A DNA stretch of 64,000 nt. Origin: Candidatus Kaiserbacteria bacterium (GTDB taxonomy: Bacteria; Patescibacteriota; Minisyncoccia; Phycocordibacterales; UBA2100). A model generated the notes under the pieces. It was not told the origin of the DNA. It was given only the letters and a program-made list of their open reading frames with translations, and made no database searches. Positions 7,167 to 54,943 of the stretch are shown in pieces. Each line of letters begins with the position of its first letter. Within the stretch, counting starts at the first letter, position 1. Location: NCBI GenBank assembly GCA_963767115.1, contig CAVYCR010000005.1, positions 89,582-153,581 on the forward strand, written 5' to 3'. The translations under genes were made by a program, and so were the position numbers.

Positions 7167-7184
7167 AGATCAGTGCTCAGGAAA

Positions 7185-8249: not shown

Positions 8250-8263
8250 AGATCAAGTATGCC

Positions 8264-8674
8264 TTATGCTTTGGAGTTTTTCCCGATTTCTTCAGCGATG
8301 ATGTTGACAACTTCTGAGGGAATCTTGCTTGCCTTCACGACGAATGCTCTCGCGCCCAAGCTATGCGCGCGAGCGCGTTCACTATCTTCCATCTGGTTGG
8401 TGAGCGCGATGAGAGCTGCATGCGGCACGAGCTTCTCATCGCGTATTGCCTCGAGAAGCGCAAAGCCGTCACGCTCGGGCATGATGAGATCGAAGACAAC
8501 TGCATCGGCCTCGAATCCCCCGCGGAGCATTTCGATTGCCTCATTGACCGAGAGGCATCCATGCGCAGTGAAACCCTCCTTCGCGAATTTCATCGCATAC
8601 ATGTCAAGAAGAAATTTGTCATCGTCGACCAAGAGCACGTTGCCTCTGTTTTTCGGATGTATTGAATCAGGCAT
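8264..8674 (-). CDS. single-domain response regulator (CheY-like receiver)
   Basis: [26 protein letters not shown] pattern. The ORF is intact. Confidence 0.85.
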
Positions 8675-34327: not shown

Positions 34328-34438
34328 GAACAAGAACCTCAAATGGCTCTTAACACGCTAAAGAACTAATCTTGCTACTGATGCCGGCCCTTGTGCCGGT
34401 ATTTTCTTATTCATTGGGGAAAAAATAGCTGCCCCTCC

Positions 34439-35347
34439 CTAATGATCCTCGGCTCGCAAGCCAAGCTCGAGAACGACAACAGGGGTGTGAATGTGAAGCG
34501 CGGGCTTCGGACGCGCTGCGAGATGGGACTGCGCCCCGGCGTCGCGCCAGTAGGCTACAGCAACGAGAAACATGCGGATCGGAAATGTCATGCGGTAGTA
34601 GATACCGTGCGAGCGCCCGTTATCAAGCAGATGTTCGAGAAGGTCGCGAACGAGAAGTACAGCGGCCGAAGGCTTCATCAATGGCTGAAGTTCGATATCA
34701 ACTTCAAGAGTCGTGGCAATAAGAATATGACGCTCAGCAGCGTCTACGTAGTTCTACAGAACCCCTTCTACTACGGTGTATTCGAGTACCCGGAGAAGAG
34801 CGGCAACTGGTATCAGGGCAAGCACGAACCGTTGATATCCAAGGAATTATTCGAAAAGGTACAGGCGCAGCTCAAGCGAGACAACATACAGCGCGAATCG
34901 CACGAATTCGCCTTCACCAAGCTCATGACCTGCGGCAAGTGCGGATCATGCATCAGTGCTGAGGAAAAATACAAACAGCGAAAAGATGGCACGACCGCCC
35001 GCTACGTCTACTACGGATGCGGACGCACTCGCGACAAACAGTGCAAAGGCAATACGTATCTACGAGAGGAGGAACTCGTAGAGCAATTGCTCAAGATCAT
35101 CGATCAGATCGATATCAACCAGATCAACGTGCAAATGAAATTCGAAGACGAATTGAAACGGCACAATAAATTCCAGCGTACGGTACTTGGACTCTCAGAC
35201 CCGAGTGCAACGCATGAGGAGATCAATATCCGGACCTATGCAAAATACATTCTCAAGGAGGGCACGAATGAGGAGAAGCGCGAGTTGATGGGATGCTTCA
35301 AGTCGAAGTTGAAGATCATGAAAGGGGTTGTGACGATAGAAATCTGA
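34439..35347 (+). pseudogene. 5'-truncated large serine recombinase (lacks the catalytic resolvase domain)
   Basis: Collinear with residues from about 143 to the end of the recombinase at 51974-53305, with an offset of 17961 bp. The 3' ~560 nt are near-identical. Homology starts abruptly at ..LMILGSQAKLENDN. Confidence 0.8.
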
Positions 35348-35368: not shown

Positions 35369-36751
35369 CTATTTCTTATTTAAGTGCTGAACCACTTTAG
35401 AAACAGCTGCGACTTTCTTCTTTAAGCGACGCCCCCGTTTCAGGATAGAGATTTGCTTTGGTATTGCAGGAGCATCGAGAACCGACGCAGTACGCTTGGC
35501 ATAGGCTAGGAAGTTATTTTTTGGAACGCCGAATTTCTGATGAAGTAGTCGCTTCGGTGGTCCAGAACGGCCTTTCGCAAATGCCCCGATCACTGCCCTC
35601 CGCGTCAGCTGATTCATGCGCCGGTCGAACCGTGCGATAGACCCATGTCGCAAGCTCAAGTTTGTCCCATCGGAAACGATCCCGAGGTATTGGATCTGCG
35701 CGGCAATACCAGTGATCGGATCGAGTGATTGCACAACACCATTGTTCACGACACATATGCGACGCACCGTCTTCTGTTCCTTGATTTGAAGTCGAAGTTT
35801 CTTAATCTCTCCCATGACTCTTTCTTCGATCTGCGAAGAGTATTCCGGCGGACAGACGATTAGGATATCATCGGAATAACGTCGATAGAGGCCACCAACT
35901 TCACTGACGACCTTGGCGATTTCTGTATCAAAGTCCAGCATGTAGACATTTGCGAGCGTGCAGCTCAATGCTGCTCCTTGCGGTATACCCTTCGTTTCGC
36001 TTCGCACCTCCTGTAGGTGCCTATCGATTATCTTCGATTTGAATTCGTGCGGAAGAACGATGCGGGACTGCCCGCGCTGCTTCGCATGCACCACCAAATC
36101 GCGCATCCGGCCCTGGCGAACAAACCTATATTTTGTGACTGATCTGAATACCGCCGTATGATCCGCAGGGAGGTTCTCTGCACCGAGAATCTGCGCCCAC
36201 TTCTGTCGTAGCAAGTCATGATCAATCTCCTCATAAAACTTTGATACGTCGAGTGCAATGACTGCGCAGGGAGCGTGATCCCGCATGAATGTAAATGCGT
36301 CTTGCGCGAAGTGAGCCGTACTCATCGCGGTGAACCCGTCGACTGTCTTGATCGCCCGATATGCGATGACGTTGGTCCCTATGCCCCTAATAGCAAGTTC
36401 TGATTCGTATGCATCAGAAATAAGGTTTGCATACCACGAATAAACAAGAGCATCTCCATGAGACGCATAGTCGATAGGTCGTCTCTTGATCTCTCGTTCG
36501 CGATGCCGACTTCCTTTGACGCGGTTTTTCGGATGCCTGAATCGATTCTCTTTGGCATCAATTCGTATGAATGGATAAAACGAGTGCCTCGCTACATTTT
36601 CAGGCTGAAGCATTTCGAGCGTTCTATTTCGGTCGAGCGTCGATATACGACTATCAAAATGAAGGTATTGACGCTTTGCTCGTCGGTCGGGTCGGCGTTT
36701 GAGTTTGTCAGCTTCTTTCTCGAACCATTGTTCCCATTTTGCAGTATTCAT
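35369..36751 (-). CDS. stand-alone reverse transcriptase, Abi/UG (defence-associated) type, not retron, group II or DGR
   Basis: RT motifs RRPIDYASHGDALVYSWY, ALDVSKFYEEIDH, GIPQGAALS, YRRYSDDILIV and YLG. No maturase, endonuclease or retron VTG features were seen. Confidence 0.8.
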   Translation of the reverse strand: MNTAKWEQWFEKEADKLKRRPDRRAKRQYLHFDSRISTLDRNRTLEMLQPENVARHSFYPFIRIDAKENRFRHPKNRVKGSRHREREIKRRPIDYASHGDALVYSWYANLISDAYESELAIRGIGTNVIAYRAIKTVDGFTAMSTAHFAQDAFTFMRDHAPCAVIALDVSKFYEEIDHDLLRQKWAQILGAENLPADHTAVFRSVTKYRFVRQGRMRDLVVHAKQRGQSRIVLPHEFKSKIIDRHLQEVRSETKGIPQGAALSCTLANVYMLDFDTEIAKVVSEVGGLYRRYSDDILIVCPPEYSSQIEERVMGEIKKLRLQIKEQKTVRRICVVNNGVVQSLDPITGIAAQIQYLGIVSDGTNLSLRHGSIARFDRRMNQLTRRAVIGAFAKGRSGPPKRLLHQKFGVPKNNFLAYAKRTASVLDAPAIPKQISILKRGRRLKKKVAAVSKVVQHLNKK

Positions 36752-37219
36752 AATTCAAGTACACCCGACACCCCCTGGGCTCCTGGTGCCTCAAGGCTAG
36801 CGCCTTTGGTCAGGGGTGTGGGCAGCGATTCGCGAGGACGTTCGAGACGTCGTTTACCATCTGTGACGGCCAGGAAAATAAAACGTGTACATTATAATTC
36901 ATGCAATGAACATGACCGAACGATTCATACACCTTGCGATGCATGCCGTGGCTGCGTTCCTGCTGATGACATCGAGCGATAATCCTCGCGGATTGACTCC
37001 TATCAACTTCATGCCCCGTGAACACTAACGAACACGGGGGCTCGCGAATCGGGCACTAAGGCCACATTTGATATTACGCTTCCTAGTTACGAGGTCAATA
37101 TTGAAAACCCACTCGAACACAAGCGTAACGGCAGATGATCTGAAACATCACCCTACAAGAACATGAAATGCGGTTCTTTCGAATCCTTTGCCCTCTCTAG
37201 ACTTATCGAAAAAGTGACG

Positions 37220-37301
37220 CATAACCGGCGCTCAAAATAAGGCTCGGCATAGCACCGATAACAAGTACTGACTGCGGGGTGTTTGGTACGAGGTTGGAAC
37301 T
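37220..37301 (-). repeat. att-like scar: copy of the tRNA-Ser 3' flank plus a degenerate tRNA 3'-like motif
   Basis: cataaccggcgctcaaaataaggctcggcatagcaccgataacaagtact compared with 54692-54746, about 85-90% identical by eye. It is followed by gtgtttggtacgaggttggaact. Confidence 0.65.
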
Positions 37302-37304
37302 AGT

Positions 37305-37835
37305 TTAGGTTAAAAAACCCTTATTTCTACCGTCATCAACAATTTTATCCAACTCTTTTAAGTATTCTTCACATATAGAGAATATGTCTTCGTCACCCTG
37401 CCAGTCACTAAAAGTATATTTACTTGAAATAATCCCGTTATCGATAGCACTTTGGAATGGTTGAAATTTGCCGATCGACTGCCCTTTTATATTTCCATCC
37501 TTATCTTTGTGTACCATTGATACAGAATCGCTAATATGTATAGTTTCTGATAGCATCAATGAAATATCGCGTTTAAACTCAAGAGGTTCAGTGTGAATAT
37601 TGAAATCTCTTTTGTCTTTCAAAAAATCTACTACCTTGTTGTTTGTCACTTGGTTGTCATACCATCTTTTGCCATCATCTTTAGACTCAGCTTCTTTTAA
37701 AGCATATTGTAAAACCGATCGAGAAGATGATAAAAAAGCACTTAGATTAAATTTAAAACCTTCTCTATTTTCTTTCTCTTTTACCATCTGAGAGTAAAAG
37801 TATTTTGCTTCAAGAAGCTTATCTATTTCATTCAT
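37305..37835 (-). CDS. hypothetical protein (low GC cassette gene 1)
   Basis: ORF track. AT-rich codon usage unlike the flanks. No domain recognised. Confidence 0.6.
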   Translation of the reverse strand: MNEIDKLLEAKYFYSQMVKEKENREGFKFNLSAFLSSSRSVLQYALKEAESKDDGKRWYDNQVTNNKVVDFLKDKRDFNIHTEPLEFKRDISLMLSETIHISDSVSMVHKDKDGNIKGQSIGKFQPFQSAIDNGIISSKYTFSDWQGDEDIFSICEEYLKELDKIVDDGRNKGFLT

Positions 37836-37848
37836 GCTCTTTACGGAC

Positions 37849-37873
37849 GTGTATTTGGTACGAGGTTGAAACT
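37849..37873 (-). repeat. second copy of the 23-25 nt tRNA-3'-like motif
   Basis: gtgtatttggtacgaggttgaaact compared with 37279-37301 gtgtttggtacgaggttggaact. Confidence 0.6.
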
Positions 37874-37904
37874 CTCTTAGGATAGAAGAACTTAATTTAG
37901 TTGC

Positions 37905-39131
37905 CTATTCTCGCGCCTTATATATTTCGAGGAAAAGCTGCGATAGTTCATTGATACCCGAGGTCTGGATACCTTGCCCCTTAAAAGAAACTGGACATCC
38001 TCTTCCTCTGGAAGGAAGTCGATCAAGCTCTTGATCTTGAGCTTCTTTAATTTCACCCGTTGAGAGTGCTTGCTTTATTTTCTGCATCTCATCAAGAATA
38101 TGAGGATTAAGAATAAGCTTGCCTTGTGCATCTTTTTGTACAAGTTCGGAAAGATATTTTCCCATCAAAGAGAAAGGGCCGATATAGCCTGGTGGAGCAA
38201 GATATCCGAGCTGATTTGGCAATTCAGCCTTTATTAAATCCTCGATAAACTTTTCTGAATCATCGTAGCCATCTTTTTTCTCTGACGAGAGTTGAGCGAC
38301 AGCTTGACCCAAAGTAACTATACCTTCTTGTAATGCCTTTAGCGCAGCCATACTCATATCATTGAGTAGGCGGAGGTCCTCTTCTCCGCGAGCAGTTTTT
38401 GCAAAAATATCTTTATGTGCTTCAACTAGCTGCGCAGATTTTTCTTCTAGAACGGAGGTGCTCTTGAGCATAATTTCGACTGTTTCGTAAATCTTCTTTG
38501 CTACAGTTGGTCCATATTCGCCAACAGGAATAACAACGAATGGCGGGAGCATTTTACTATTTTCTTTTGACCACGACTTGCCAAACAAAATCTGTGGGGC
38601 ATTTTTTACTTTAAATTTTTTATCCCATATTTCCTGCTCGTTGTTGAGATGCCCGGCATTATGCTCGGCAAATGCTGCGACCTGAGCGAAAAGTGGACTT
38701 ACGGATTCTGAATTAAAGCCCTTTTTCATTTCTTCAATAATTACTTCGATATGATTCTCAAAATGTATTTCACTCATCGGAGAATCTTTACGATTGGTTC
38801 GTCTTAAAAATTCCTTATATCCAATCCCTCCAATCTCTTGATTTCTTAGTAATGACGGTAATTCATTCATCCCAAAACCTAAGAAGTCCATACAGCTTGT
38901 CAAAGAGGAATAATTTGGACTCATTTCCGGTTTATATTCTTCAAGTTCCAGAAATTCGGGATTTGGTTTTGAAACTCCATTCTCGCGCACGGAGGAAACA
39001 TAGTCGCCAATGAATGGCGTAAGAACATTTCGCAAAACTCGCAAATGTTCTACCGCCTCTTTCTTATCAGGAGCCTTCTCGTCATTTTTAGGATGATCGA
39101 CTTCTCTTGCCGACAGTTTTTCTAGTCCCAT
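37905..39131 (-). CDS. hypothetical protein (low GC cassette gene 2)
   Basis: ORF track, 408 aa. No domain recognised. Confidence 0.6.
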   Translation of the reverse strand: MGLEKLSAREVDHPKNDEKAPDKKEAVEHLRVLRNVLTPFIGDYVSSVRENGVSKPNPEFLELEEYKPEMSPNYSSLTSCMDFLGFGMNELPSLLRNQEIGGIGYKEFLRRTNRKDSPMSEIHFENHIEVIIEEMKKGFNSESVSPLFAQVAAFAEHNAGHLNNEQEIWDKKFKVKNAPQILFGKSWSKENSKMLPPFVVIPVGEYGPTVAKKIYETVEIMLKSTSVLEEKSAQLVEAHKDIFAKTARGEEDLRLLNDMSMAALKALQEGIVTLGQAVAQLSSEKKDGYDDSEKFIEDLIKAELPNQLGYLAPPGYIGPFSLMGKYLSELVQKDAQGKLILNPHILDEMQKIKQALSTGEIKEAQDQELDRLPSRGRGCPVSFKGQGIQTSGINELSQLFLEIYKARE

Positions 39132-39260
39132 GTTCCTGATTGTATCAGATATCCCTTATCACTGGGATACCTCTTTACACTTGATATTCAACAGTGCTTA
39201 ATATGTCCTAATGTCTCTCAAAACCCACTACGGGGGCAGTCGTCTAACAGCTACAGACAA

Positions 39261-39317
39261 GGGCTCGACATAGGTCCGATACAAAATACTACGGGCGGGC
39301 ATCCGACGTTTCGAACT
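39261..39317 (-). repeat. pseudo-tRNA-Ser 3' fragment plus flank copy (att scar)
   Basis: The minus strand reads GTTCGAA-N11-CCGCCCGTAGTA. It has the same length and ends as the tRNA T-loop-to-3'-end plus flank (GTTCGAATCCCTGCCTCTCCGCCCGTAGTA). Confidence 0.7.
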
Positions 39318-39785: not shown

Positions 39786-42700
39786 TCAATTTGACAGATG
39801 AGTTCCGCACAGATCGATTTCTTTCATGACATCTATAGTACCTTTGAGCGAGACAACCATCTTCTCGTAGTTCTCGAATTCAGCGGTGGTTAGCTTCTGC
39901 CCCTTACGATCCTTGAGATATTTTTGTGCGGGTTGGTATCCGCCGATATAAAACTCCCACACATCTTTTGGCACACCGTCCCAATACTGCGAGGCATTGA
40001 TATAGACGCGACCGTCTGAATAACTTATCTTGTCGACAATGTCCGACGATGCAATAGGAAATGTCGTGATCGGTGTCTCGACGAGAGGGTCAGTCAACAG
40101 ATGCATCCCTCGCAACTTCCTGCCGAGCGGCACGAGCCGCCAAAACTTTTCTTTATCTTTCGGATAGGGCACGCGCGGAAAATCACTCTTCAAGAACTCG
40201 GCATACGTTGCTCGATATGACGGAGAGTGCAGCATTGCATATACATAATCAAAAATGTCTTCCGGCCTCGTCGGACCCACAGTAAGTTCTATTTTCAGAA
40301 CAATCATTGGATCGAGATTCGGCTTCTTCTCGCCCTTTTTGTAGAGATACAGAGGGGATATATAATTTGTCTCTTTAATCGATACCCGGCGGGCGTCGGA
40401 AATCTTATCGGTCAAAAATATGTCAGCAAAATCGCGAGACCCCTCAATATGCTTATTTGATACAAGTCCGACATTATCACCATCTAGGAAATCATGCATT
40501 ACACTTCTTCGTGAACGCTCAATAAAATCATCGCTGTAGTAAATATATTTTTGATCAAACGGTCGATACGATATTGGTACGATATTGTGCGCATCAAATG
40601 TATGCTTCTGTGCGTTCACTATTTTCCATTTCTGATTTTCACCGAGCGCATATTTGCGTACCGCTTCGTTTGGAGAAATCATAAGAAAATCTTCTATCCG
40701 CTTGGCGAGTACGTCTTTAGATTGATCGATTACGAATGCATCGCGCGAGGTAACGATGCCGACCGTGTTTATTGGGAATAATTCTGCAACAGAAAATCCC
40801 TGCAAATAATCGCTCTTGCCCTCACCTTCCACCTTCCAAGTATCAGCGTTCTCCGGAAGTTCGTTCCAAACAATCGTATCAACCGTTCCCATCGTGAGTG
40901 CTTCGAATTTCTCTGAGCGCAAACCAAACAGATCAGCTTTGAAAATCGTTGCGAGCGGCTTCCTTTTTTTCTTGTCGCCGAGCCGTTTCTTGATGCCAAA
41001 AAATATCGAGACACCCGTCTTGATGTCGAAGACATTTTCGTCTTTTCCGCCGTCCTGTGTCGTCTCTTTCTTGTTGCTGTTGCCGTGCAAGTCGAGCACA
41101 TAGATCGCATCGAAGGTGTCGCGCAAGTGCCAACGCATCCCGCGGAATGTTGGGTTGTCGATGTAGCCGTGCGAGGTGATCATGCCAACAATTCCCTCGC
41201 CATTTTTCTCGATCATTGTTTCGGCGAAGCGGATGAACTTTACATAATCATCGTTGATCCATTTGCTGTTTTTCTCTTTCAACTTTTCTTTGCCACCCGG
41301 TTCGACCTTGTATGCATCGTTAGCCGTATAGTGAGGATTCATAGATTCGCCTGAGTACGGCGGATTGCCCATCACGACCATGATCGGATACTCGCGTTTG
41401 ACACGCGAGGCAAGGCGGCTTTCCTCGGCAATACTCTCAACCGCACCGAAGAGACTATGGATGAGCGGGATGTCGTGCGCTTCGTCAAGCGTGTTGGTGA
41501 GATAGACGCCGAGCCGATGCTTGAGATCGTTGAGGCCGGTGTGCTTCAGTGTCATGGCAATCTTGAGATGCGCAATCGTATAGCTCGCCATCATGAGTTC
41601 AAATCCATGCAGGCGCGGTAAGAGATCATCTTCTACATATGCGCCCCAACGACCCTGCGCGCCCTTCTGCGATTCGTGGATGTGCGTGATCGTTTCGTTG
41701 AGGAATGTCCCTGTACCCGTCGCCACGTCGAGAAGTTGTACGCGATGTGTGTCGATATCAACTCGCTTCTCTTTCCCTTTATCGAGCACCGTCGTCGAAC
41801 GCTCGATACGAGAGTTGTCAGCGATACCCTTGCTGATGCCAAACTCCCGTTTCAAGAGGTCGTCGATGCCGCGGATGATGAATCGCACCACCGGAAGCGG
41901 TGTATAGAAGACACCCATTTCCATCTTCTTCTGCGGATCATATTCACGCAGGAAATCTTCGTAGAAATGTATAACGGGGTCGGGCAGGTCGGCATTCACA
42001 TCTTTGTTCTTGAAATATTCCTCCATGAGCGCCTTCACATCGGCGTGCGTGAAGACTGTGCACAGTTCGTCGACAATGACGCTCAGACGTCGCGGGAAAG
42101 ATGTACCGGCAATATGATCGAAGAAACTTTGTAGAAACGGGTTGGTTTTGGGGATGAGACTTCGTGCTTCTTGGCGGTTGAATGTGTCGGCTGTCGGATC
42201 GTTGTAACGCGCGGCGAAGAGACCATACACGATTGTCTGCGCATACATGTCGGCGAAGTCGGTGGTCGTGAAAGTCGTGATGAGATTTTCCCGAATGAAA
42301 CGCATCATGCGTTCGAGCTCATCCTTTTCTTGGCTCGTGCTTTCAAGGAACGCGATCACGTTGTCACGTATGCGCTGCGCCTTGCCGCCCATGATGCGCG
42401 CGAGGTGTGCGCCGCTTTTGATCGGCTCTTTCTGCGACTCGACGAAGTCGTGCATGGTGCGCGCAAGCCGCTCGCCCTGGCCCGGGTGCGGGATGAACGT
42501 GCCACGCTTCACATCGACGGTTGCGAGGCGCAAATGTTCGTCGTATGGCTCGCCATTGCGATAAAATCTAAATTCGCAGTAGTCACTGATGATGAGGTTG
42601 GTGTAGCCGAAGTACCGGCTCGCCTGCGAGGACTTCTCGATCTTGTTGAGGTCTTCACCGACTTTCTTCACTTCAATATACAAAAGAGGAACATCGTCTT

Positions 42701-42914
42701 TCAGCACGATGAAATCGGGCTTGTTGCCGCTCTGTGCTTTGGGATCGTGTTGAATGTGAAAGTGCCCGCTCGCAGGAAAGACGGAGCTGAGATAATTCTG
42801 AAACGCGGTTCGGTATGACATCTCCGAGCTGCTCACGTCATGAAAATAGCTTTCGACCGACGAGAGATAGGTATTGACATTGGGACCATTGTTAATTGTT
42901 CGTTCTGAGGTCAT
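39786..42914 (-). CDS. type IIG/IIL (MmeI/Eco57I-like) restriction-modification enzyme: PD-ExK nuclease plus gamma N6-adenine methyltransferase plus TRD
   Basis: N-terminal KPDFIV..x..IEVKK, AdoMet motif LDVATGTGTF and catalytic VMGNPPYSGE. 1042 aa. Confidence 0.85.
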   Translation of the reverse strand: MTSERTINNGPNVNTYLSSVESYFHDVSSSEMSYRTAFQNYLSSVFPASGHFHIQHDPKAQSGNKPDFIVLKDDVPLLYIEVKKVGEDLNKIEKSSQASRYFGYTNLIISDYCEFRFYRNGEPYDEHLRLATVDVKRGTFIPHPGQGERLARTMHDFVESQKEPIKSGAHLARIMGGKAQRIRDNVIAFLESTSQEKDELERMMRFIRENLITTFTTTDFADMYAQTIVYGLFAARYNDPTADTFNRQEARSLIPKTNPFLQSFFDHIAGTSFPRRLSVIVDELCTVFTHADVKALMEEYFKNKDVNADLPDPVIHFYEDFLREYDPQKKMEMGVFYTPLPVVRFIIRGIDDLLKREFGISKGIADNSRIERSTTVLDKGKEKRVDIDTHRVQLLDVATGTGTFLNETITHIHESQKGAQGRWGAYVEDDLLPRLHGFELMMASYTIAHLKIAMTLKHTGLNDLKHRLGVYLTNTLDEAHDIPLIHSLFGAVESIAEESRLASRVKREYPIMVVMGNPPYSGESMNPHYTANDAYKVEPGGKEKLKEKNSKWINDDYVKFIRFAETMIEKNGEGIVGMITSHGYIDNPTFRGMRWHLRDTFDAIYVLDLHGNSNKKETTQDGGKDENVFDIKTGVSIFFGIKKRLGDKKKRKPLATIFKADLFGLRSEKFEALTMGTVDTIVWNELPENADTWKVEGEGKSDYLQGFSVAELFPINTVGIVTSRDAFVIDQSKDVLAKRIEDFLMISPNEAVRKYALGENQKWKIVNAQKHTFDAHNIVPISYRPFDQKYIYYSDDFIERSRRSVMHDFLDGDNVGLVSNKHIEGSRDFADIFLTDKISDARRVSIKETNYISPLYLYKKGEKKPNLDPMIVLKIELTVGPTRPEDIFDYVYAMLHSPSYRATYAEFLKSDFPRVPYPKDKEKFWRLVPLGRKLRGMHLLTDPLVETPITTFPIASSDIVDKISYSDGRVYINASQYWDGVPKDVWEFYIGGYQPAQKYLKDRKGQKLTTAEFENYEKMVVSLKGTIDVMKEIDLCGTHLSN

Positions 42915-43084: not shown

Positions 43085-44881
43085 ATGGGAGCACAAAAGA
43101 TGACCAAGAAAACAGGTGCGGCAACGCCCTCGCTGATCAAAGAGCAGCTGCTTCCCGAATTCGCTTTCGTCGGATACTGCAACAGCGATGACGCGAACAA
43201 ATACACGTCGAGAGCTAAGACCATCGATATCCAGTTCGTACGCGCCGCGCGAGATGAGGGTCTGCTCATACCCCTTTATTCGGCAGAAGGGCCCGTACGC
43301 AAGCCGGATGGGAGCGTCAATAACGAGATCGTCGATTACTATAGCCCGCTTCAATTTTTCATAGTCACTCAGCTGCGCAAGAATATCGTTCTGAATGGCA
43401 GATTGTGGGACCCTGAGACTGTCGAGTGGTACCCAGAGAAGCCGATGGAGGAACGACCGCGATTTATTTCATGGGGAGGAGGATTTTCATTCTCACCAAG
43501 GGATGTCGGCGATCCGGCACGCAAAAAAAGTGACGACGTCCTGTTCAACGCGTATTTATTCACGGCGACATTCGATGCCCTTCTCCGCTTTATCCATGCA
43601 ACACCATTGAAAGACAAGTACAAAATGCCGATGGACGAAAGTGATATGTTCGAGAGTGTTGCGACATTCAATCATGATCTGACGGCAGTCGTTTCGATTC
43701 CTGATGAATTAAAGCAGTATCGGCTCGATGCGAAGAAACTTAATTTCCTGAGGGCACATATCGCTCAGGCTGCGGCAGTTATTGACCCCCTCGAACTCTG
43801 GTATTACTACATCGACCGGCACCCGAATTCAAAGAAGAGCTTCCTCAAGGGCGACGCGCGAGTCGCGCAAAAGCTCTACAAAATCTACAATCTCATTACC
43901 GACGTCTGGCAACGAGTGACAGACGAGGAATCCAAACCACTTCTCGAACTCGTCGCAGGAGAAATCGGCAGTGGATATCTCACTCCACGAACGGAGTATT
44001 TGCATGGCATGGATGTTCAGGCAATGCGGCATAGTATCAATGGCTTTACTGTATGGAGTCGTATTCGAGGTAACGGTAAATATGTAACGGCGCAAATCCG
44101 TGAAGCGCTCGCCAAGGCTGTGACCGATTTAGACGACTTCGAAAAGCGATATGGCGATCGCAATTACGGCGGCAACTATCGTATACGAGAAGATCACGGG
44201 GTACGGTACGATCAGCTCGACAATGTCTCAAAGGCACGTTTTGACCAATGGCGTCTGCAACGTCACGATGCGGAAGAATGGGAGACAATCGAAGACGTTA
44301 TCGACTATCGCATCCATGAGATACAACGTGCATTGTCGACGGCGTACCATGCTGTCGGTTCACAACTACGTAACATCACCGCTGAGGCATGGGATATGCC
44401 GAAGCATTTCAATCATACATTTTGGATGCAACACCCCGTAATGTCTCAGGAAGAGCGAATGAAAGTGTTCCAAAAGGAGTCAAAGCGACTTACCGCTCAT
44501 GCGCGCGCCTGTCAGGAAAAAGAGCGCGAATTCTGGGGAGCTGTCTCATCAACGCGACTCGCGTTTTGTAAGATCTGCCGCAAACGGCCGATCCAGCTAC
44601 ACGCCGACACACGCAGTTTTGACTCACAGCCATCGATTTGCGATACGTGCGTGAAGGAAAAGAAGACGTATCCCGATACTACAAAAGGCGCGGAGTGGCT
44701 ATGTGATTCCTGTGGTCACGTCATTTACAAATTCGTTCATGGAAATACGTTAAGCGCACGCACACAGACCGGCACAGCAGTCGTGATTGAATTGAAATAT
44801 GGGAACCTCTTAGTCGAAGCGACGTGTCCAAAATGTAAAAATACCTTTGAGAAATCAATCGAATTCGGGTGGCTACCATGA
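43085..44881 (+). CDS. hypothetical 598-aa protein with C-terminal zinc ribbons
   Basis: CKICRK..CDTC and CDSCGH..CPKC pairs. Divergent from the R-M gene. Confidence 0.6.
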   Translation: MGAQKMTKKTGAATPSLIKEQLLPEFAFVGYCNSDDANKYTSRAKTIDIQFVRAARDEGLLIPLYSAEGPVRKPDGSVNNEIVDYYSPLQFFIVTQLRKNIVLNGRLWDPETVEWYPEKPMEERPRFISWGGGFSFSPRDVGDPARKKSDDVLFNAYLFTATFDALLRFIHATPLKDKYKMPMDESDMFESVATFNHDLTAVVSIPDELKQYRLDAKKLNFLRAHIAQAAAVIDPLELWYYYIDRHPNSKKSFLKGDARVAQKLYKIYNLITDVWQRVTDEESKPLLELVAGEIGSGYLTPRTEYLHGMDVQAMRHSINGFTVWSRIRGNGKYVTAQIREALAKAVTDLDDFEKRYGDRNYGGNYRIREDHGVRYDQLDNVSKARFDQWRLQRHDAEEWETIEDVIDYRIHEIQRALSTAYHAVGSQLRNITAEAWDMPKHFNHTFWMQHPVMSQEERMKVFQKESKRLTAHARACQEKEREFWGAVSSTRLAFCKICRKRPIQLHADTRSFDSQPSICDTCVKEKKTYPDTTKGAEWLCDSCGHVIYKFVHGNTLSARTQTGTAVVIELKYGNLLVEATCPKCKNTFEKSIEFGWLP

Positions 44882-44948
44882 TGCTCCTTGAAGGATGAGC
44901 TGCGGGATTATTCGGGTATTTCGAACCTCGATTTTATAAATCTATACT

Positions 44949-45989
44949 TTATATCCCAGCTTCTTCCCTTAATCCTCTCGCATTGCCGTGGCCCAATAAT
45001 CCCCGATAAGATTGACGGACCACTTCGTTTTCCTGTTCTCCCAATTTCCGAAACATTCGGCGTTTTGTGGCAGTCCGAAGTACGCGATGGTCAGGAAAAT
45101 GCACCCACCCGAGGAAATCGACGCCCGAGGCGAGCGAACTGATAAACAGCTTGTTGGGATGAAGCGAGAGTTTGAGGCGCAATTCGAGAAACGAGGCAAT
45201 CTGCGGGACGAGCGTTTCAAGTTTTTCTTTGTCGTCTGAAAGAATCACGAAATCGTCTGCATAACGAATGTAGCAGTTCGCTTTTACCTTGTGCTTCACG
45301 AATTGATCGAACTCGTTCATGTATACGTTGACGAGCAGTTGCGATGTGAGATTGCCGAGCGGAAGACCCTTTCCTTTTTCAGTTGTGTGGAAGCTTCCTA
45401 CAATTTCTGCAACAAGATTGACGATACGTTCGTCTGGAATATATCGTGCAACTATTTCAAACATTATGGCTTGGTCGATCGAAGCGAAGAACTTTCGTAT
45501 GTCGCATTTTAAAACCCAGCACGTTTGCGTTTGATTCTTTGAAACTATCCATGCCATCGCGCGAAACCGATTCATCGCGCGATGCGTTCCCTTGTCTTTC
45601 CGACACGAATACGAGTCGGCAATAAACGTGCGATTGAAAAACGGAAAGAGCTTCCGATACAGTGCGTGATGTAGAAGCCGATCACACACGCTTGCCTTAT
45701 GTATGTCGCGCGGCTTCGGCTCGGCAATCTTGAAGGCGTGGTATTCGCTATGCCTATATACGCCGTTAGCGAGGTCTCGATGGAGCGCAAGAATGTTATC
45801 CATCAGCCGGTATTGGAATTCCTGCACGTCTTTCTTCTTTCTTTTGCCGCGTAGGAATTCCTTCCATGCGGCGAGCAAGTTTTCGACAGAAATGATATCG
45901 TCATAGTTATGACCGAAGTGGATGCCTTTAACGTACCCCCCCCCCGCACGAATCTTGCCTGTTATTGAGCATGGAGTATCAGTGTACAA
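44949..45989 (-). CDS. diversity-generating retroelement reverse transcriptase
   Basis: DGR hallmark LGNLTSQLLVNVYMN (I/LGxxxSQ) and YIRYADDFVIL. Adjacent TR, VR and Avd. Confidence 0.9.
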   Translation of the reverse strand: MYTDTPCSITGKIRAGGGYVKGIHFGHNYDDIISVENLLAAWKEFLRGKRKKKDVQEFQYRLMDNILALHRDLANGVYRHSEYHAFKIAEPKPRDIHKASVCDRLLHHALYRKLFPFFNRTFIADSYSCRKDKGTHRAMNRFRAMAWIVSKNQTQTCWVLKCDIRKFFASIDQAIMFEIVARYIPDERIVNLVAEIVGSFHTTEKGKGLPLGNLTSQLLVNVYMNEFDQFVKHKVKANCYIRYADDFVILSDDKEKLETLVPQIASFLELRLKLSLHPNKLFISSLASGVDFLGWVHFPDHRVLRTATKRRMFRKLGEQENEVVRQSYRGLLGHGNARGLREEAGI

Positions 45990-46302
45990 GCAGTGGCATG
46001 AATACCGAGAGGACTTTCCAAAATCATCCCGCTATACACTCGGCGACAGGATAGACCTTCTTTTTGTTCATATTCTTGAACTACTATTTACCGCAAGTTA
46101 CCAAAGCAAGGAAGCGAAGCTGCCGACACTCGAGATGGCGGTACGAAAAATTGACGTATTGAAATTCCTGTTACGCGTCGCATGGGAGCTTCGGGCACTC
46201 GACACGAAAAAGTACGCGGTGCTATCGGAAAAATTAGATGAATTTGGTCGAATGGTCGGCGGTTGGAAGAAAGGACTGGGAACCAAAACTCCCGCCAGAT
46301 AG
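45922..46302 (+). CDS. avd: Avd-like accessory variability determinant (four-helix-bundle, 23S rRNA IVS protein family)
   Basis: ..FPKSSRYTLGDRI......ILE....A.......K...L......ID.LK.LLR.A.EL......KY..L...LDE.GRM.GGW.K pattern. 126 aa. Confidence 0.75.
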   Translation: MPLTYPPPARILPVIEHGVSVYKQWHEYREDFPKSSRYTLGDRIDLLFVHILELLFTASYQSKEAKLPTLEMAVRKIDVLKFLLRVAWELRALDTKKYAVLSEKLDEFGRMVGGWKKGLGTKTPAR

Positions 46303-46328
46303 TAGAGGCGGGAGAAACTCGGTAGTTT

Positions 46329-46443
46329 CGGGAGAGAGAACCCGATTGCCGGCGTTCCACCTGTTGTCGTCGCGGTTCCACGTGTTCACGTTCCACTTCG
46401 AGTTGTCGGCGTTCCAGTTCACGTTCACGACACAGGAACTCTC
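46329..46443 (-). other. DGR template repeat (TR)
   Basis: About 113 nt collinear with the VR. It encodes the AAC-rich SSCVVNVNWNADNSKWNVNTWNRDDNRWNAGNRVLSP. It differs from the VR only at its adenines. Confidence 0.9.
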
Positions 46444-46757
46444 GTATCCGAAGCCGTCTGTGCCACCACCCATCGAATACTCTACGGGCTGTATCTGATT
46501 CGGGGCATCGAAGCCCGCTGACCTCGGATACCAACTGACCAATGTTTTTGTGGAGACCGGCTACGCACACTTCCTTAAGCCGTGGCCGAAAGAATTCTAA
46601 CGAAGCCGTTTCCGAAATCTCCGCGCTCAAGCCTTAACCGGAGCGCCACCAGAAATTTCATATGTAGTATATCAAAAAGAAAATCCCCGGGCCCAGTGAC
46701 AAAGTGTCAAAGGGTCCGAGGATTCAGCTCGCCAAGGGCGAGCAAAGGTGCAGAGGG

Positions 46758-47417
46758 TCAGTTGGCGGGAGAGAGAACCCGAACGCCGGCGCTCCACCCG
46801 AGGCCGCCGCGGTCCCACGTGTTCACGCCCCACTTCGAGCTGACGGCGCGCCAGAACACGAACACGACACAGGAACTCGTGTAGAACAGGTTGGCGTAGC
46901 CGTTGTTCAGCAAATCGCCTTCCTTGCCCTCGGGCTGTTTGGAGATCATCTCGGCGACGACGGCGCACAGCGCGCCCTCGTCCCAAAGGTGATTCTTGGG
47001 CAAACCGTTTTCGATTTCCTTGTCCGTCAAGTCCGCGCCGAGTTCATCGACATTGACCTTGAAGGTAGTGCCGGTGTTGATCGGCTTCGCCAACTTGACC
47101 ACGCGAGTCTGGAAGTCGTCCCAGACGTAGAGTCCGTCGCGCGTCTTGAAGAAGGCGTCGGGGTTGCGATGGTCGGAGTCGGTAATCGTGATGGAAAGCT
47201 GCGGACGGCGGATGAGTGCCATCATGCTCTTAATTACATCTTCGATAGCGGTTTCGAGCCGTCCCGCGAGGATTTCGGTCTTGTCCTTGATCCCCGCGAG
47301 CACCACCTTGGGATCGCCGAATTTCGCGGCGACTTTCGGCAATGCGACCGCGAGCGCACTGGTAACGTTCGAGTTGAGTTCGGCCATCTGGCCGGGACTG
47401 AAGGCTGTTCCACTCAT
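46758..47417 (-). CDS. DGR variable (target) protein
   Basis: The C-terminal 38 aa are encoded by the VR. It is a paralog of 13531-14004. Confidence 0.85.
   Translation of the reverse strand: MSGTAFSPGQMAELNSNVTSALAVALPKVAAKFGDPKVVLAGIKDKTEILAGRLETAIEDVIKSMMALIRRPQLSITITDSDHRNPDAFFKTRDGLYVWDDFQTRVVKLAKPINTGTTFKVNVDELGADLTDKEIENGLPKNHLWDEGALCAVVAEMISKQPEGKEGDLLNNGYANLFYTSSCVVFVFWRAVSSKWGVNTWDRGGLGWSAGVRVLSPAN
46766..46880 (-). other. DGR variable repeat (VR)
   Basis: Offset +437 from the TR. There are 19 substitutions, all at TR A positions (plus-strand T), and 0 at the roughly 85 non-A positions. Confidence 0.9.
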
Positions 47418-47593
47418 GGTGGCTGTTCCTTACAAGTGCTGCTGGTTCCTCGGCGATTCCAAGGTTTGCCTCAGCGGAAAATGCCCTCAATGTAAGGCGC
47501 TTTCAGCTGTGGCAAAGACCCTTTTTCAAAGAACAGAGACTGGTATTATAATACAAATAGAAACGATACGCAAGTACCCGCGTATTGGCGAAC

Positions 47594-47623
47594 TTGCATC
47601 ATAAATGTCCTGTGATGTATAAT
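47594..47623 (+). promoter_or_regulatory. candidate sigma-70 promoter (TTGCAT-18 nt-TATAAT)
   Basis: TTGCAT at 47594-47599 and TATAAT at 47618-47623. Confidence 0.4.
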
Positions 47624-47678
47624 TCAGGGACAATTCAATAGCTACCTACGCGGTAGCCGCGGTGGTCGAGAGAAAGGA

Positions 47679-47723
47679 CCGCCAACGACCTGAGCTTTTT
47701 TGCTCGGTTGTTGGCGGTTTTTT
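47679..47723 (+). terminator. terminator/attenuator hairpin with T6 tail upstream of the ParB-methylase gene
   Basis: ccgccaacgacctgagc / gctcggttgttggcgg stem followed by tttttt. Confidence 0.5.
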
Positions 47724-47775
47724 GCTGCCTTCAGCCCCACAAAGCTCAGGTCATTAGAAATGTAATGACCAATGC

Positions 47776-49065
47776 ATGAAAAAAGTAACAAAAACGAATC
47801 TCACATGGAAAACGGAAAAGCGCATCATCAGCCAGCTCATCGGCCACCCGAAGAACCCGCGCAAGATGAGCGAATCGCAGATGCGGAATCTTCAAGAAAG
47901 CCTCAAACGGTTCAATCTCGTCGAGATACCTGTAGTGGATACCGATAACACGATATTGGCTGGACACCAGCGGTTGAAAGCGATGCAGCTTGCCGGACGC
48001 GGCGAGGAAGAGATCGACGTGCGCGTACCCAATCGAAACCTCACCGAAACAGAGCGCGAGGAGTATCTACTGCGCAGCAACCAAAACACGGGAAGCTGGG
48101 ATGAGGAATTACTCAAAGCGATGGACATGGACATGCTTCTCGACGTCGGTTTCGGCGACGACGAGCTGCAAACCATCTTCGATGATATCGATGTCATCGA
48201 GGACGATTTCGACGTCGAAAAAGCGCTCAAGGAGACAAAGGTTGCTCGGGTAAAACCAGGCGAACTGTGGCAGCTCGGCAGCCACCGTCTCCTCGTGGGT
48301 GATTCAACCGATGCCGAACAGGTCAAAAAACTGATGGGTACCGACCGAGCGGATGTCGTGTACTGTGACAGCCCGTACAACATCGGACTCGATTACTCGA
48401 AAGGAATCAGTACCGGCGGCAAATACGAAGGTACCTACACAAGCGCGAAAGATTCCAAGAAAGACGTGGCCTTCGGCGCATTTCTCGATGCGAGCATGAA
48501 AGCCGCGCTCTCCGTGGCCAAGCCAAACGCACACCTATTATATTGGTGCGACGAGAAGTATATCTGGCTCCTGCAATCGCTGTATCGAGAAAATGGCATC
48601 GACAACAAACGCGTCTGCCTGTGGATCAAGAACAACTTCAACATGACTCCGCAGGTCGCATTCAACAAGGCATACGAGCCGTGCGTGTATGGAGTTATCG
48701 GCAAGCCATATCTCAACAGTGAACTGCGCAATACCAACGAGCTTCTGAACAAAGAGATCGGATCAGGTAATCAGGTGCACGAGGAAATCCTCGACATATT
48801 CAATCTCTGGCTGGCACGTAGGGATAACGCGCAATCATATCAGCACCCGACTCAAAAGCCGGTCGCGCTCAACGAGAAGCCACTGAAGCGTTGCAGTGCT
48901 CCGGGACACATCGTGCTCAGCGGCTTTGCCGGTAGTGGAAGCGATCTCATCGCATGCGAACAGCTCAATCGCAAGTGGCGGGGTGTCGAGATCGATCCGA
49001 TCTTCGCCACCGTCTGCATCGACCGGTGGGAGTCCTTTACCAACCAACGCGCGACACTCATATGA
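47776..49065 (+). CDS. ParB-like nuclease domain fused to an N4/N6 DNA methyltransferase
   Basis: ParBc motif ..HPKNPRKM...L..SL..F.L...PVV......ILAGHQRL, then DSPYN, HPTQKP and FAGSGS methylase motifs. Confidence 0.85.
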   Translation: MKKVTKTNLTWKTEKRIISQLIGHPKNPRKMSESQMRNLQESLKRFNLVEIPVVDTDNTILAGHQRLKAMQLAGRGEEEIDVRVPNRNLTETEREEYLLRSNQNTGSWDEELLKAMDMDMLLDVGFGDDELQTIFDDIDVIEDDFDVEKALKETKVARVKPGELWQLGSHRLLVGDSTDAEQVKKLMGTDRADVVYCDSPYNIGLDYSKGISTGGKYEGTYTSAKDSKKDVAFGAFLDASMKAALSVAKPNAHLLYWCDEKYIWLLQSLYRENGIDNKRVCLWIKNNFNMTPQVAFNKAYEPCVYGVIGKPYLNSELRNTNELLNKEIGSGNQVHEEILDIFNLWLARRDNAQSYQHPTQKPVALNEKPLKRCSAPGHIVLSGFAGSGSDLIACEQLNRKWRGVEIDPIFATVCIDRWESFTNQRATLI

Positions 49066-49811
49066 GCGTCGAGCAAGGAGATATCTTCTCCGTCGGTGAG
49101 CACATCATCGCGTGCGGCGATTCGCTCGATGCGACATTCGTGAGTAAGGTCATTGGAGACAAAAAGATCAGATGCATTCTCGTTGATCCCCCGTACGCCG
49201 TCTCCTACGTCGAGGGCAAGCGAGATTTCAACAAGCTGGGCGTGAATACGGACAAAGCGATCATCGGCGATCAGCTGCAATCCGACGAGGAATACGCTCG
49301 CTTCACGGGAGCGTGGCTCGAGGCGGTAAAGCCGCACCTAGAGCCGTACAATGCCTGCTACATCTTCAACAGCGATCTTATGTACCCTGCGCTGCGCCAA
49401 GGCATGAAGGATGCCGGGTTCTATTACTCCCAAGGTCTGATATGGATCAAGAATACGGTTGTCCTCGGCAGGAAAGATTATCTCCCCATGCACGAGCTCA
49501 TCGCGTACGGCTGGTGCGGCAAACACAAGATGGAACGCAGCAAAGCAAAAAGCATACTCTTCCACCCAAAACCAGCTGCATCGAAACTTCATCCCACACA
49601 GAAACCCATCGGACTCCTGCGTAAATTGATACCGAATTCGACGCGCCTGAGAGACTACGTGTATGACCCCTTCTTAGGCAGCGGGAGTACCGCTGTCGCC
49701 TGCGAGCACCTCGGCCGAAGGTGTGTCGGGATAGAAATTGATCCTGCGTACGCGGGAATTGCAATAGCGCGTATGGAGAAGCTCACCGGACTTGTCGCGC
49801 GAAAACTATGA
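49062..49811 (+). CDS. N4/N6 DNA methyltransferase (beta class)
   Basis: VDPPYA, HPTQKP and DPFLGSGST motifs. ATGA overlap with the upstream gene. Confidence 0.85.
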   Translation: MSVEQGDIFSVGEHIIACGDSLDATFVSKVIGDKKIRCILVDPPYAVSYVEGKRDFNKLGVNTDKAIIGDQLQSDEEYARFTGAWLEAVKPHLEPYNACYIFNSDLMYPALRQGMKDAGFYYSQGLIWIKNTVVLGRKDYLPMHELIAYGWCGKHKMERSKAKSILFHPKPAASKLHPTQKPIGLLRKLIPNSTRLRDYVYDPFLGSGSTAVACEHLGRRCVGIEIDPAYAGIAIARMEKLTGLVARKL

Positions 49812-50191
49812 GCGACGCCGTACCACCACAAAACAGAGGACGTGGCGCGTACAAGGCACGTGAATTCGAGACGTATCTCAAATGGAGAGCGCTGCCGCCA
49901 AGCTACCGCGACATGCCGCGCCAGTCGCTCGAAAAGATGGGGTTTGATGAGAGCATGCAAGACCTGCTTGAGATCAAATCGCAAAAGGCATTTGCAGAGC
50001 GATACAGCGTTGATGAAAGCACGCTCACTGAATGGAACGTGAGGATCGACCGCGACGGACTGCTTGATGATACACGCGCATGGATGCGTTCGATGACCCC
50101 GCTCGTATTCGGATCATTACTCAAAAAGATTGTTAAAAATCCGCACTCAAGCGATGTACGGCTGTGGCTTGAGTACGGAGAAGGCATATAA
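49808..50191 (+). CDS. hypothetical protein (possibly HTH / small-terminase-like)
   Basis: ATGA overlap with the upstream gene. The similarity judgement is weak. Confidence 0.4.
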   Translation: MSDAVPPQNRGRGAYKAREFETYLKWRALPPSYRDMPRQSLEKMGFDESMQDLLEIKSQKAFAERYSVDESTLTEWNVRIDRDGLLDDTRAWMRSMTPLVFGSLLKKIVKNPHSSDVRLWLEYGEGI

Positions 50192-50203
50192 CCGCACATC
50201 AAT

Positions 50204-50413
50204 ATGGAACACGAATTACTCACCAAATCACTGACTCCCGCGGAAGTGACAATACTGCTTTCACAGGCCATGCACGACCTCAAGAATCGAAAGATTACCC
50301 TGCGGCAAGCGCTTGCTCTTTCCCGCGTGGCGACCGCATTGGTAAAAAGCATTGAGACGGCTGAACTCAAGGCACGCATCGAGCTTCTCGAGCAGACGCT
50401 CAAGAAACGATAA
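50204..50413 (+). CDS. small hypothetical coiled-coil protein
   Basis: ORF track. Confidence 0.4.
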   Translation: MEHELLTKSLTPAEVTILLSQAMHDLKNRKITLRQALALSRVATALVKSIETAELKARIELLEQTLKKR

Positions 50414-50417
50414 CATT

Positions 50418-51890: not shown

Positions 51891-51973
51891 AATAGTTACC
51901 TCCTTGTATTCAATAGACTTGTGGCGAGGGTTGCGGCATTGCTTGTGATGTAGCAGCTAAATACCACAAGCAT

Positions 51974-54588: not shown

Positions 54589-54691
54589 TAGGCCACATGA
54601 TAGACCTTTACTGAGAATTAGGGAATGTCGCAGTAATAAATCAGAAAGTTCGAATCCCTGAACGGTCTCTAGATTTTCCAGAGATTCGTTA

Positions 54692-54746
54692 CATAACTGG
54701 CGCTCAAAATAGGACTCTGCATAGCACCGATAAAAAGTACTACGGG
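54692..54746 (-). repeat. tRNA-Ser 3' flank (reference copy of the att-like repeat)
   Basis: See the copies at 37220-37301 and 39261-39317. Confidence 0.65.
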
Positions 54747-54834
54747 CGGAGAGGCAGGGATTCGAACCCTGGGAACCCTTTAGAGGTTCAACACATTAGC
54801 AGTGTGCTCCATTCGACCGCTCTGGCACCTCTCC
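54747..54834 (-). tRNA. tRNA-Ser (anticodon GCU), class II with long variable arm
   Basis: Hand-folded: acceptor GGAGAGG/CCTCTCC, anticodon stem GCACA/TGTGT with loop CTGCTAA, T-arm CAGGG-TTCGAAT-CCCTG. 88 nt. Confidence 0.9.
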
Positions 54835-54943
54835 GTGTCGTTGCATCGTACTCTATCATGGCGTTCTCTTCAATGCTTAATGATTACTTAATAGACCAGT
54901 GGTCAAAATGAAGAAAATACGGTATTGTTTAGAAATTCTAACT

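Follow-up and report, generated by a model that had tools for sequence, protein, structure and literature searches.

Two AT-rich genes lie side by side on the minus strand of a 64,000-nucleotide stretch of Candidatus Kaiserbacteria DNA (contig CAVYCR010000005.1, positions 89,582 to 153,581; the whole stretch is called the window below), and each is followed by the same short sequence motif. The question raised by this locus is whether the two genes belong together, as an uncharacterised two-gene defence or toxin system that a first-pass annotation had proposed, and what the repeated motif is. The region is probably a composite genomic island, formed by repeated site-specific integration beside the tRNA-Ser(GCT) gene, in which the motif is a junction sequence. 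The two genes, encoding 408 and 176 amino acids (aa), were most likely acquired separately, as two cargo cassettes rather than as a paired defence system.

The shared motif

The two open reading frames (ORFs) and the two motif copies are as follows.

37905-39131, minus strand: 408-aa ORF with ATG start, GC 0.405; putative cargo of module B
37845-37873, minus strand: motif copy 2 (junction J3), AGTTTCAACCTCGTACCAAATACACGTCC; 3' end of the 408-aa module
37305-37835, minus strand: 176-aa ORF with ATG start, GC 0.322; putative cargo of module C
37273-37301, minus strand: motif copy 1 (junction J4), reading from 37301 to 37273 as AGTTCCAACCTCGTACCAAACACCCCGCA; a pseudo-tRNA 3' end

The existence and coordinates of both ORFs are as the first-pass annotation had them, and so is their low GC content, which is below that of the whole window (0.526) and of the neighbouring restriction-modification (RM) and reverse transcriptase (RT) genes (~0.49). 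The motif AGTTYCAACCTCGTACCAAAYAC follows each ORF and occurs only these two times in the window. In its plus-strand form, TTGGTACGAGGTTGRAACT, it has exactly two sites (37283-37301 and 37855-37873), and 100 shuffles gave 0 chance matches even when 3 mismatches were allowed. On the coding strand copy 1 starts 3 nt past the 176-aa stop codon and copy 2 starts 31 nt past the 408-aa stop codon, which agrees with the distance of 3-31 nt given earlier. The shared motif is thus real, but the length of ~25 nt first assigned to it is too short (the true length is ~29 nt), and the motif was also found outside the window.

Junctions beside tRNA-Ser(GCT)

The sequences next to the motif copies were compared with the surroundings of the single tRNA gene of the window, tRNA-Ser(GCT) at 54744-54835 (minus strand).

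54660-54835, minus strand: junction J1, intact, consisting of tRNA-Ser(GCT) (54744-54835) and flank R1 (54660-54743)
39240-39316, minus strand: junction J2, pseudo-tRNA end GTTCGAAACGTCGGATGCCCGCC (39316 to 39294), then flank R3 (CGTAGTATTTTGTATCGGACCTATG...)
37190-37272, minus strand: flank R2, near-duplicate of the sequence downstream of tRNA-Ser, 90% identical over 50 nt to 54692-54741

The tRNA gene is followed immediately by flank R1 and then by the island genes, and J1, at the island's proximal end, would be the target of integration. The duplicated region consists of the tRNA-Ser 3' end and ~80 nt of downstream flank: the tRNA and its flank read ...CTCTCCGCC-CGT-AGTACTTTTTATCGGTGCTATGCAGAGTCCTATTTTGAGCGCC..., and motif copy 1 and what follows it read ...CACCCCGCA-GTC-AGTACTTGTTATCGGTGCTATGCCGAGCCTTATTTTGAGCGCC.... 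Past ...CCGC[A/C] and 3 further nucleotides, J1 and J4 both continue as AGTACTTkTTATCGGTGCTATGCmGAG...GAGCGCCrGTTATG...TCTAGAGA. The identity of R2 to R1 is significant in blastn (90% over 50 nt, E = 8e-12) and the likeness runs on to TCTAGAGA. As copy 1 is followed by the same flank as tRNA-Ser, it stands exactly in place of the tRNA 3' end. The upstream boundary of the 408-aa module, J2, has a layout like that of copy 1 and J1, reading GTTCGAAACGTCGGATGCCCGCC-CGT-AGTATTTTGTATCGGACC..., and its flank R3 matches the same flank over 23 nt (91%, E = 0.007). The minus strand has four junctions in all, in the same orientation: J1 (54.74 kb), J2 (39.3 kb), J3 (37.87 kb) and J4 (37.3 kb).

Two copies of a serine recombinase accompany the junctions.

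51974-53305, plus strand: intact large serine recombinase, 443 aa, of the tRNA-proximal element; candidate integrase
34391-35347, plus strand: truncated serine recombinase copy, 84% protein identity, catalytic N-terminus missing

The intact enzyme has the domains Resolvase, Recombinase and Zn_ribbon_recom and is located 1.4 kb from tRNA-Ser. The truncated copy, whose C-terminal half is near-identical to the intact one, lies 1.9 kb beyond motif copy 1 and marks an older element distal to it. The same order is found at both recombinases, namely a junction with its R flank, one minus-strand defence gene and the plus-strand recombinase. A sister element in another genome (L100/L101, GCA_003164215.1; 95.7% nucleotide identity over 5.7 kb) adjoins a different tRNA, tRNA-Ser(GGA), with the same junction, CCGCC/CGTAGTAsTTTTTATCGGTGCTATGC (here and below a slash marks the boundary), and its gene content between flank and recombinase differs from that of the window. 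Since the same flank occurs at another tRNA-Ser, it is part of the element family and does not come from the host. The region thus combines an intact target RNA gene, repeats in the same orientation, a recombinase with a degenerate copy and the same family at a tRNA-Ser elsewhere, an arrangement that agrees with known tandem integrative islands.

Read from the tRNA along the minus strand, the island would begin with tRNA-Ser and flank R1, followed by an element A of ~15 kb, which carries a 425-aa gene, the serine recombinase, methylases, a diversity-generating retroelement (DGR) and the Type IIG RM gene and ends in the pseudo-tRNA end J2. Flank R3 and module B with the 408-aa gene, ending in motif copy 2, would come next, then module C with the 176-aa gene, ending in motif copy 1, and last flank R2 and element D, with the DRT2 reverse transcriptase and the truncated recombinase. 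The motif would combine an element-derived arm with the crossover core of an attachment site, loosely mimicking a tRNA 3' end (GTTCnAA...CCGC), and each integration would leave one motif copy at the distal end of the incoming DNA, displacing older modules from the tRNA. Modules B and C would be promoter-poor single-gene cargo cassettes without a recombinase and of low-GC origin, resembling candidate phyla radiation (CPR) genomes; they probably depend on a recombinase acting in trans, for which the serine recombinase of the island is the most plausible candidate. The series of junctions, the flank duplications and the pair of recombinases are observed directly; that recombination acts at the two motif copies, which would then not be mere relics, is inferred, as is the candidate enzyme.

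The motif and breakpoints in other genomes

The two window copies, and no others, served as query in a search of 162 flanks (200 nt each) beside homologs of the 176-aa gene. Matches with at most 6 mismatches in 23 nt were found on the gene strand in 4 of the 162 flanks (0.05 expected) and in 0 on the antisense strand. Copies of the motif flank the gene on both sides in two loci (L019, L029) and follow the stop codon in L017/L018. In L007, which comes from the 18.6-kb contig CAINVT010000040.1 of a metagenome-assembled genome (MAG) and is otherwise dissimilar to the window, 32 of 34 nt are identical to copy 1, after an unrelated 215-aa ORF; among the 4 exact genome matches to the motif this one extends to 32/34 nt, and that in L010 to no more than 23/24 nt. 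L055 and L021 contain arrays of looser copies (GGTTCYAAC-NTCGTMC...), which lie between small ORFs.

Breakpoints at such sequences were observed directly in strain comparisons. The core DNA of strains L002 and L003 is 88.6% identical, and a shared 1563-bp segment that carries a 426-aa gene of the 408-aa family is 99.5% identical. The left edge of this segment is a genuine tRNA-fMet 3' end in L003 (...CCCCCGCAAC/) and a pseudo-end in L002 (GGTGCCAATCCCGTCCTACCAGTGCAAC/); on the right the segment stops, in both strains, at a further pseudo-end. In L046/L055 one and the same ~90-nt flank is found after each of three unlike sequences, namely a genuine tRNA-Asn end (...CCCGCGGAGC/), the end of a cassette with the 176-aa gene (...GGGGAG/) and the pseudo-end GGTTCTAATATCGTCTAGTTCCCGGAG/ (GGTTCTAAT...GGAG). 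Flanks R1, R3 and R2 of the window are arranged in a corresponding way. In both comparisons the breakpoints are located at the 3' end of the pseudo-tRNA ends.

Proximity to tRNA genes was rejected as a general trait of the 176-aa family, as only 7 tRNAs were present in 428 kb of loci. The tRNA-fMet gene of L003 (7315-7651) has a 262-nt insertion in its anticodon loop, likely a group I intron, which is absent from the sister strain L002 (6937-7011), and the split gene was missed by ARAGORN.

Relationship of the two genes

The two families differ in size and rarely meet. Seven members make up the close 408-aa family, against >220 in the 176-aa family; tblastn located 7 and 91 loci, respectively, and the two sets have nothing in common but the window and its duplicate contig L006. 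When 528 ORFs neighbouring the 176-aa gene were clustered, no recurrent neighbour was present in more than 4 of 82 loci. The contig L006 (Logan ERR11630394, 6166 nt) is an independent assembly of the segment with the RM, 408-aa and 176-aa genes. It stops 73 nt past the 176-aa stop codon, within flank R2, as expected of an assembler breaking at a repeated flank.

In many pairs of loci only the 176-aa gene and 30-110 nt on each side of it are alike (88-95% nucleotide identity), with unrelated flanks, and the gene recurs as a discrete unit of ~630-730 bp. Because the identity is confined to the gene and short margins, the 176-aa gene is a self-contained unit of ~650 bp. In several lineages the unit ends in a canonical integron attC site (R'' GCCTAAC ... 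R' GTTAGGC); the attC hairpins have z scores of -2.9 (L061) and -2.0 (L026), and both qualify as attC. The close homologs of the 408-aa protein are found in CPR-like genomes, one of them within a ribosomal-protein operon, in the rplE-rpsN interval (L005, 8001-9269), and a remote relative occupies the hpf-secA interval in four contigs (L102-L105, ~7001-8359) with a stop/start overlap with hpf. The ribosomal-operon and hpf contexts hint at a translation-linked role of the 408-aa family in CPR-like bacteria.

The likeness to mobile gene cassettes with a conserved 3' element, which the first-pass annotation had remarked on, is therefore borne out by the discrete 176-aa unit, by its attC sites in some lineages, by the motif beside the closest homologs and by the homology breakpoints at the 3' end of such elements in the strain comparisons. 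The analysis of neighbourhoods and co-occurrence that it had called for supported cassette mobility of the 176-aa gene, but neither a shared partner nor a pairing of the two genes.

Explanations of the motif

Several simple explanations were tried and rejected. Folded as RNA and as DNA, both motif copies did no better than shuffles (z +0.2 and +1.0), and there was no Rfam match, so the motif is not a structured RNA. A terminator-like hairpin does follow copy 1 (37258-37244, inside flank R2), separate from the motif, and since the motif itself has no hairpin it is not a terminator. The motif was dismissed as a sigma-70 or sigma-54 promoter, as hexamers and spacing are wrong, and as an integron attC in the window, as the inverted R' partner is absent within 170 nt. 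A host repeat of the repetitive extragenic palindromic (REP) kind does not fit two copies in 64 kb, 4 exact matches in 185,579 genomes and zero in viral contigs. Decay of a displaced tRNA end was rejected as the sole origin, because an unrelated MAG shares 27 identical nt and because the T-arm part is conserved across different tRNA types.

More elaborate alternatives deserve to be weighed against the composite island. That the 408-aa and 176-aa genes form one defence or toxin-antitoxin system, with the motif as a shared terminator or regulatory 3' element, is highly improbable. The genes are indeed adjacent, co-oriented and 69 nt apart, with one terminator-like hairpin after the second, they have defence genes around them, and homologs of the 176-aa gene sometimes stand beside CBASS, methylase or nuclease genes; yet the families, with >220 members against 7, are never together outside the window and L006, no recurrent partner exists, the motif lacks a hairpin and the 408-aa family occurs in housekeeping contexts. 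Such contexts had been named at the outset as evidence that would count against the proposal, and for the 408-aa gene they were found. The reading as a pair is largely refuted by the co-occurrence data. It is very unlikely, too, that the motif is a regulatory sequence, either an operator made of tandem direct repeats or a signal for RNA processing or stability in a 408-176 transcript. Inside the motif there is a 7-nt direct repeat (TTCCAAC-N4-TACCAAAC) with an 11-bp period, i.e. one helical turn apart, copy 2 sits 9-37 nt upstream of the 176-aa ATG with a similar position in L017, and the motif is unstructured like many protein-binding sites. However, the second copy follows a stop codon in four independent loci, the distance to downstream promoters or start codons varies from ~10 to ~200 nt, no cognate regulator gene recurs nearby, and the motif coincides with homology breakpoints and with the end of the duplicated tRNA flank.

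An origin from integrons is also rather improbable. In this reading the two genes were integron cassettes, and the motif would be what decay has left of the 5' part of an attC site (the R''-proximal region), which lost its hairpin half on capture by the island and is now inert. The 176-aa family is present in true integron cassettes (L061, L026) with cassette boundaries at G/TTAGGC, and the sequence after the stop codon in L035/L026, TCCAAC-GGCGTA-TAAC, resembles TCCAAC-CTCGTA-CCAAAC of the window when read directly. The copies in the window and in L019/L055, on the other hand, have no inverted partner and no fold, and neither IntI, attI or Pc nor any Phage_integrase-type hit was seen among the ORFs scanned, which cover most of 20.8-59.8 kb. 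The motif follows, in its 3' part, the acceptor ends of tRNAs (Ser, Asn, fMet), the breakpoints at real tRNA ends are left unexplained, and the strong conservation in L007 argues against an inert relic. It is unlikely, though conceivable, that the non-palindromic element of ~30 nt represents a previously undescribed cassette system, integron-like, in which linear tRNA-mimicking attachment sites replace the hairpin attC. The sites would then consist of the consensus GGTTCYAAC-NTCGTMC and a tail copying the acceptor end of a particular tRNA (Ser, Asn, fMet), and single promoterless ORFs would be shuttled by a recombinase acting in trans into arrays downstream of tRNA genes in CPR/Patescibacteria-like bacteria and other phyla. 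The three-cassette array of L055, the tRNA-Asn array of L046, the tRNA-fMet array of L002/L003 and the window would be examples, and the 176-aa gene would be cargo exchanged with classical integrons.

The composite island formed by repeated integration is our preferred explanation, and a number of observations weigh against it. Neither an excision product nor an empty site was observed for the window; presence/absence breakpoints at the repeats were seen for homologous cassettes elsewhere. At J3 the pseudo-end of copy 2 is present and the R-type flank is absent. The T-arm-like part of the motif is unlike the window's own tRNA-Ser, and its last bases (CCCCGCA) are nearer to the tRNA-fMet end than to the Ser end. 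The identity of 27 consecutive nt to the unrelated MAG (L007) points to selection on the motif sequence and would fit a binding site for a protein, with no particular protein specified. A distal pseudo-end was not found for element D, nor was the distal att of element D or of the L100 element found in the DNA available, and the short CPR-like contigs on which the motif occurs encode no recombinase. The sites of serine recombinases usually have little sequence in common, so the long duplicated flank is unusual for the class.

Comparison with known systems

The closest known systems are the ssrA islands of Dehalococcoides, whose elements are inserted by a CcrB-like serine recombinase at the 3' end of the transfer-messenger RNA (tmRNA) gene; the elements stand in tandem, a repeat of the RNA gene's 3' end delimits each of them, and a conserved element-derived motif that does not align with the target gene lies just upstream of the repeat (McMurdie et al. 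2011, PMC3146451). Many modules of these islands have no integrase and were read as cis-mobilizable elements accumulated by accretion (PMC3146451). The window is similar in its tandem modules after the gene of a small structured RNA, its 3'-end repeats, its serine recombinase and its modules without integrase. It differs in having tRNA-Ser and not tmRNA as target, in that its recombinase-less modules are single ORFs of 0.6-2 kb, in a duplication that reaches ~80 nt past the RNA gene, and in its cargo, which is phage defence and unknown genes instead of dehalogenases.

The tycheposons of Prochlorococcus integrate at tRNA genes, with partial tRNAs flanking the elements and scattered in islands, newer arrivals pushing older ones distally, degenerate integrase fragments and a minority of large serine recombinases (Hackl et al., bioRxiv 10.1101/2020.12.28.424599). 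The tRNA-linked accretion, the partial tRNA ends and the degenerate recombinase are common to them and the window, whereas most tycheposons have tyrosine recombinases and replication modules, none of which were found in the window. Integron cassettes share with modules B and C the promoter-poor single ORF with a 3' recombination site, the arrays and the predominance of orphan ORFs, but the element of the window has no inverted R'/L' half or hairpin, and such ends mimic tRNA 3' ends and adjoin real tRNA genes. In the staphylococcal cassette chromosome (SCC, including SCCmec), CcrAB serine recombinases integrate at the 3' end of the conserved gene rlmH, and composites occur in tandem with short direct repeats between the elements, some of which are pseudo-SCC elements without ccr genes. 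The serine recombinase, the tandem composites and the recombinase-less members are thus paralleled there (see also remarks in PMC3146451). The protein-gene target rlmH in place of a tRNA, the host group and the cargo are different.

With this analysis a candidate defence pair is reclassified as two independent cargo cassettes, which keeps a false two-gene system out of defence catalogues, and the shared motif is accounted for as an integration junction. Exact module boundaries are provided for a composite defence island with DRT2, a Type IIG RM enzyme, a DGR and a serine-recombinase element that bears methylases. For the 176-aa family, high mobility as a single-gene cassette is now documented, in classical integrons as well as in tRNA-linked arrays, and mobile single genes of this kind are promising places to look for compact defence or addiction functions that need no partner. 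The mobile elements of CPR-like bacteria are poorly known, and if the pseudo-tRNA end were a dedicated recombination site used across phyla, it would provide these bacteria with a route of cassette exchange.

Protein families

Searches of Pfam, PADLOC, PHROGs and NCBIfam gave zero matches for both proteins, in keeping with the earlier remark that no domains could be recognised, and PDB sequence profiles gave nothing significant for either. In an exhaustive profile search the residues P319, C379 and P380 of the 408-aa family were invariant in 246 remote cluster representatives, Cys379-Pro380 lying in a GRGCPVSFKGQGI motif; informative Pfam domains were absent from these 246 relatives, and a further profile search starting from them gained only P0238. 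The predicted model of the 408-aa protein (pLDDT 72, pTM 0.78) had no match in PDB with Foldseek. One weak guess is that it is a Cys-dependent enzyme whose native hosts are CPR-like bacteria.

The AlphaFold model of the 176-aa protein (pLDDT 80, <50 in the motif loop) consists of an N-terminal helical bundle, a beta-meander and a C-terminal helix. In 52 family sequences R76 and H81 never vary; they lie within the consensus KRDINIH and have the HEPN-like spacing Rx4H. Foldseek matched the model weakly to HEPN toxins (probability 0.16-0.30, TM 0.28-0.37), 0 of the 52 members matched a Pfam HEPN family at E<=1, and in BFVD one unnamed viral protein had a similar fold (E = 6e-3). The 176-aa protein may be a stand-alone HEPN-like RNase, which again is a weak guess. 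The profile and structure searches recommended in the first-pass annotation thus gave conserved residues and weak fold matches to HEPN toxins, but no significant assignment of function.

Neighbouring genes

The defence-type neighbours reported on the two sides of the gene pair were confirmed and can now be named.

39786-42914, minus strand: Type IIG/ISP restriction-modification enzyme; putative distal-end cargo of the tRNA-proximal element
35369-37065, minus strand: DRT2 reverse transcriptase and structured upstream region; putative cargo of the older element D

The former was identified as Type IIG/ISP (3e-269; Pfam Type_ISP_C, 8e-85). The latter had been described as an orphan RT; its gene (35369-36751, minus strand) encodes a DRT2 reverse transcriptase (PADLOC Drt2, 2e-121). 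The 314 nt upstream of it (36752-37065), where a non-coding RNA (ncRNA) is expected, are structured (fold z = -2.56) and are preceded by a promoter-like site at 37098-37071. DRT2 requires only the RT and the upstream ncRNA (PMC11100668), and the UG2-type RT and structured upstream region of the window agree with this architecture. Both DRT2 and the Type IIG RM enzyme are self-sufficient systems that require no extra proteins, and DRT2 is not a partner of the 408-aa and 176-aa genes.

No sigma-70-like promoter was found for the gene pair. At 39150-39175, ~20 nt before the start codon of the 408-aa gene, there is a near-perfect inverted repeat, GGTATCCC-N8-GGGATATC, which might serve as an operator or form a hairpin.

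The core of the recombinase element (window 43085-53305; L100 3767-11332) is conserved in the two genomes and contains a ~600-aa protein, two N6/N4 DNA methylases, a ~500-aa protein and the recombinase; it may itself be an uncharacterised methylase-based system. The slot between recombinase and tRNA is variable, with a 425-aa protein carrying an RNHASAAH motif in the window and HNH_5 and DUF3644/DUF4145 in L100. The DGR is located at 44949-47495, with its RT at 44949-45989 (minus strand). Its 118-nt repeat (46329-46446 and 46766-46883) is 82% identical between the copies; at 20 of the 21 mismatches the first copy has T on the plus strand (A on the minus strand) and the second copy any base, a bias that gives the adenine-specific signature of a template and a variable repeat.

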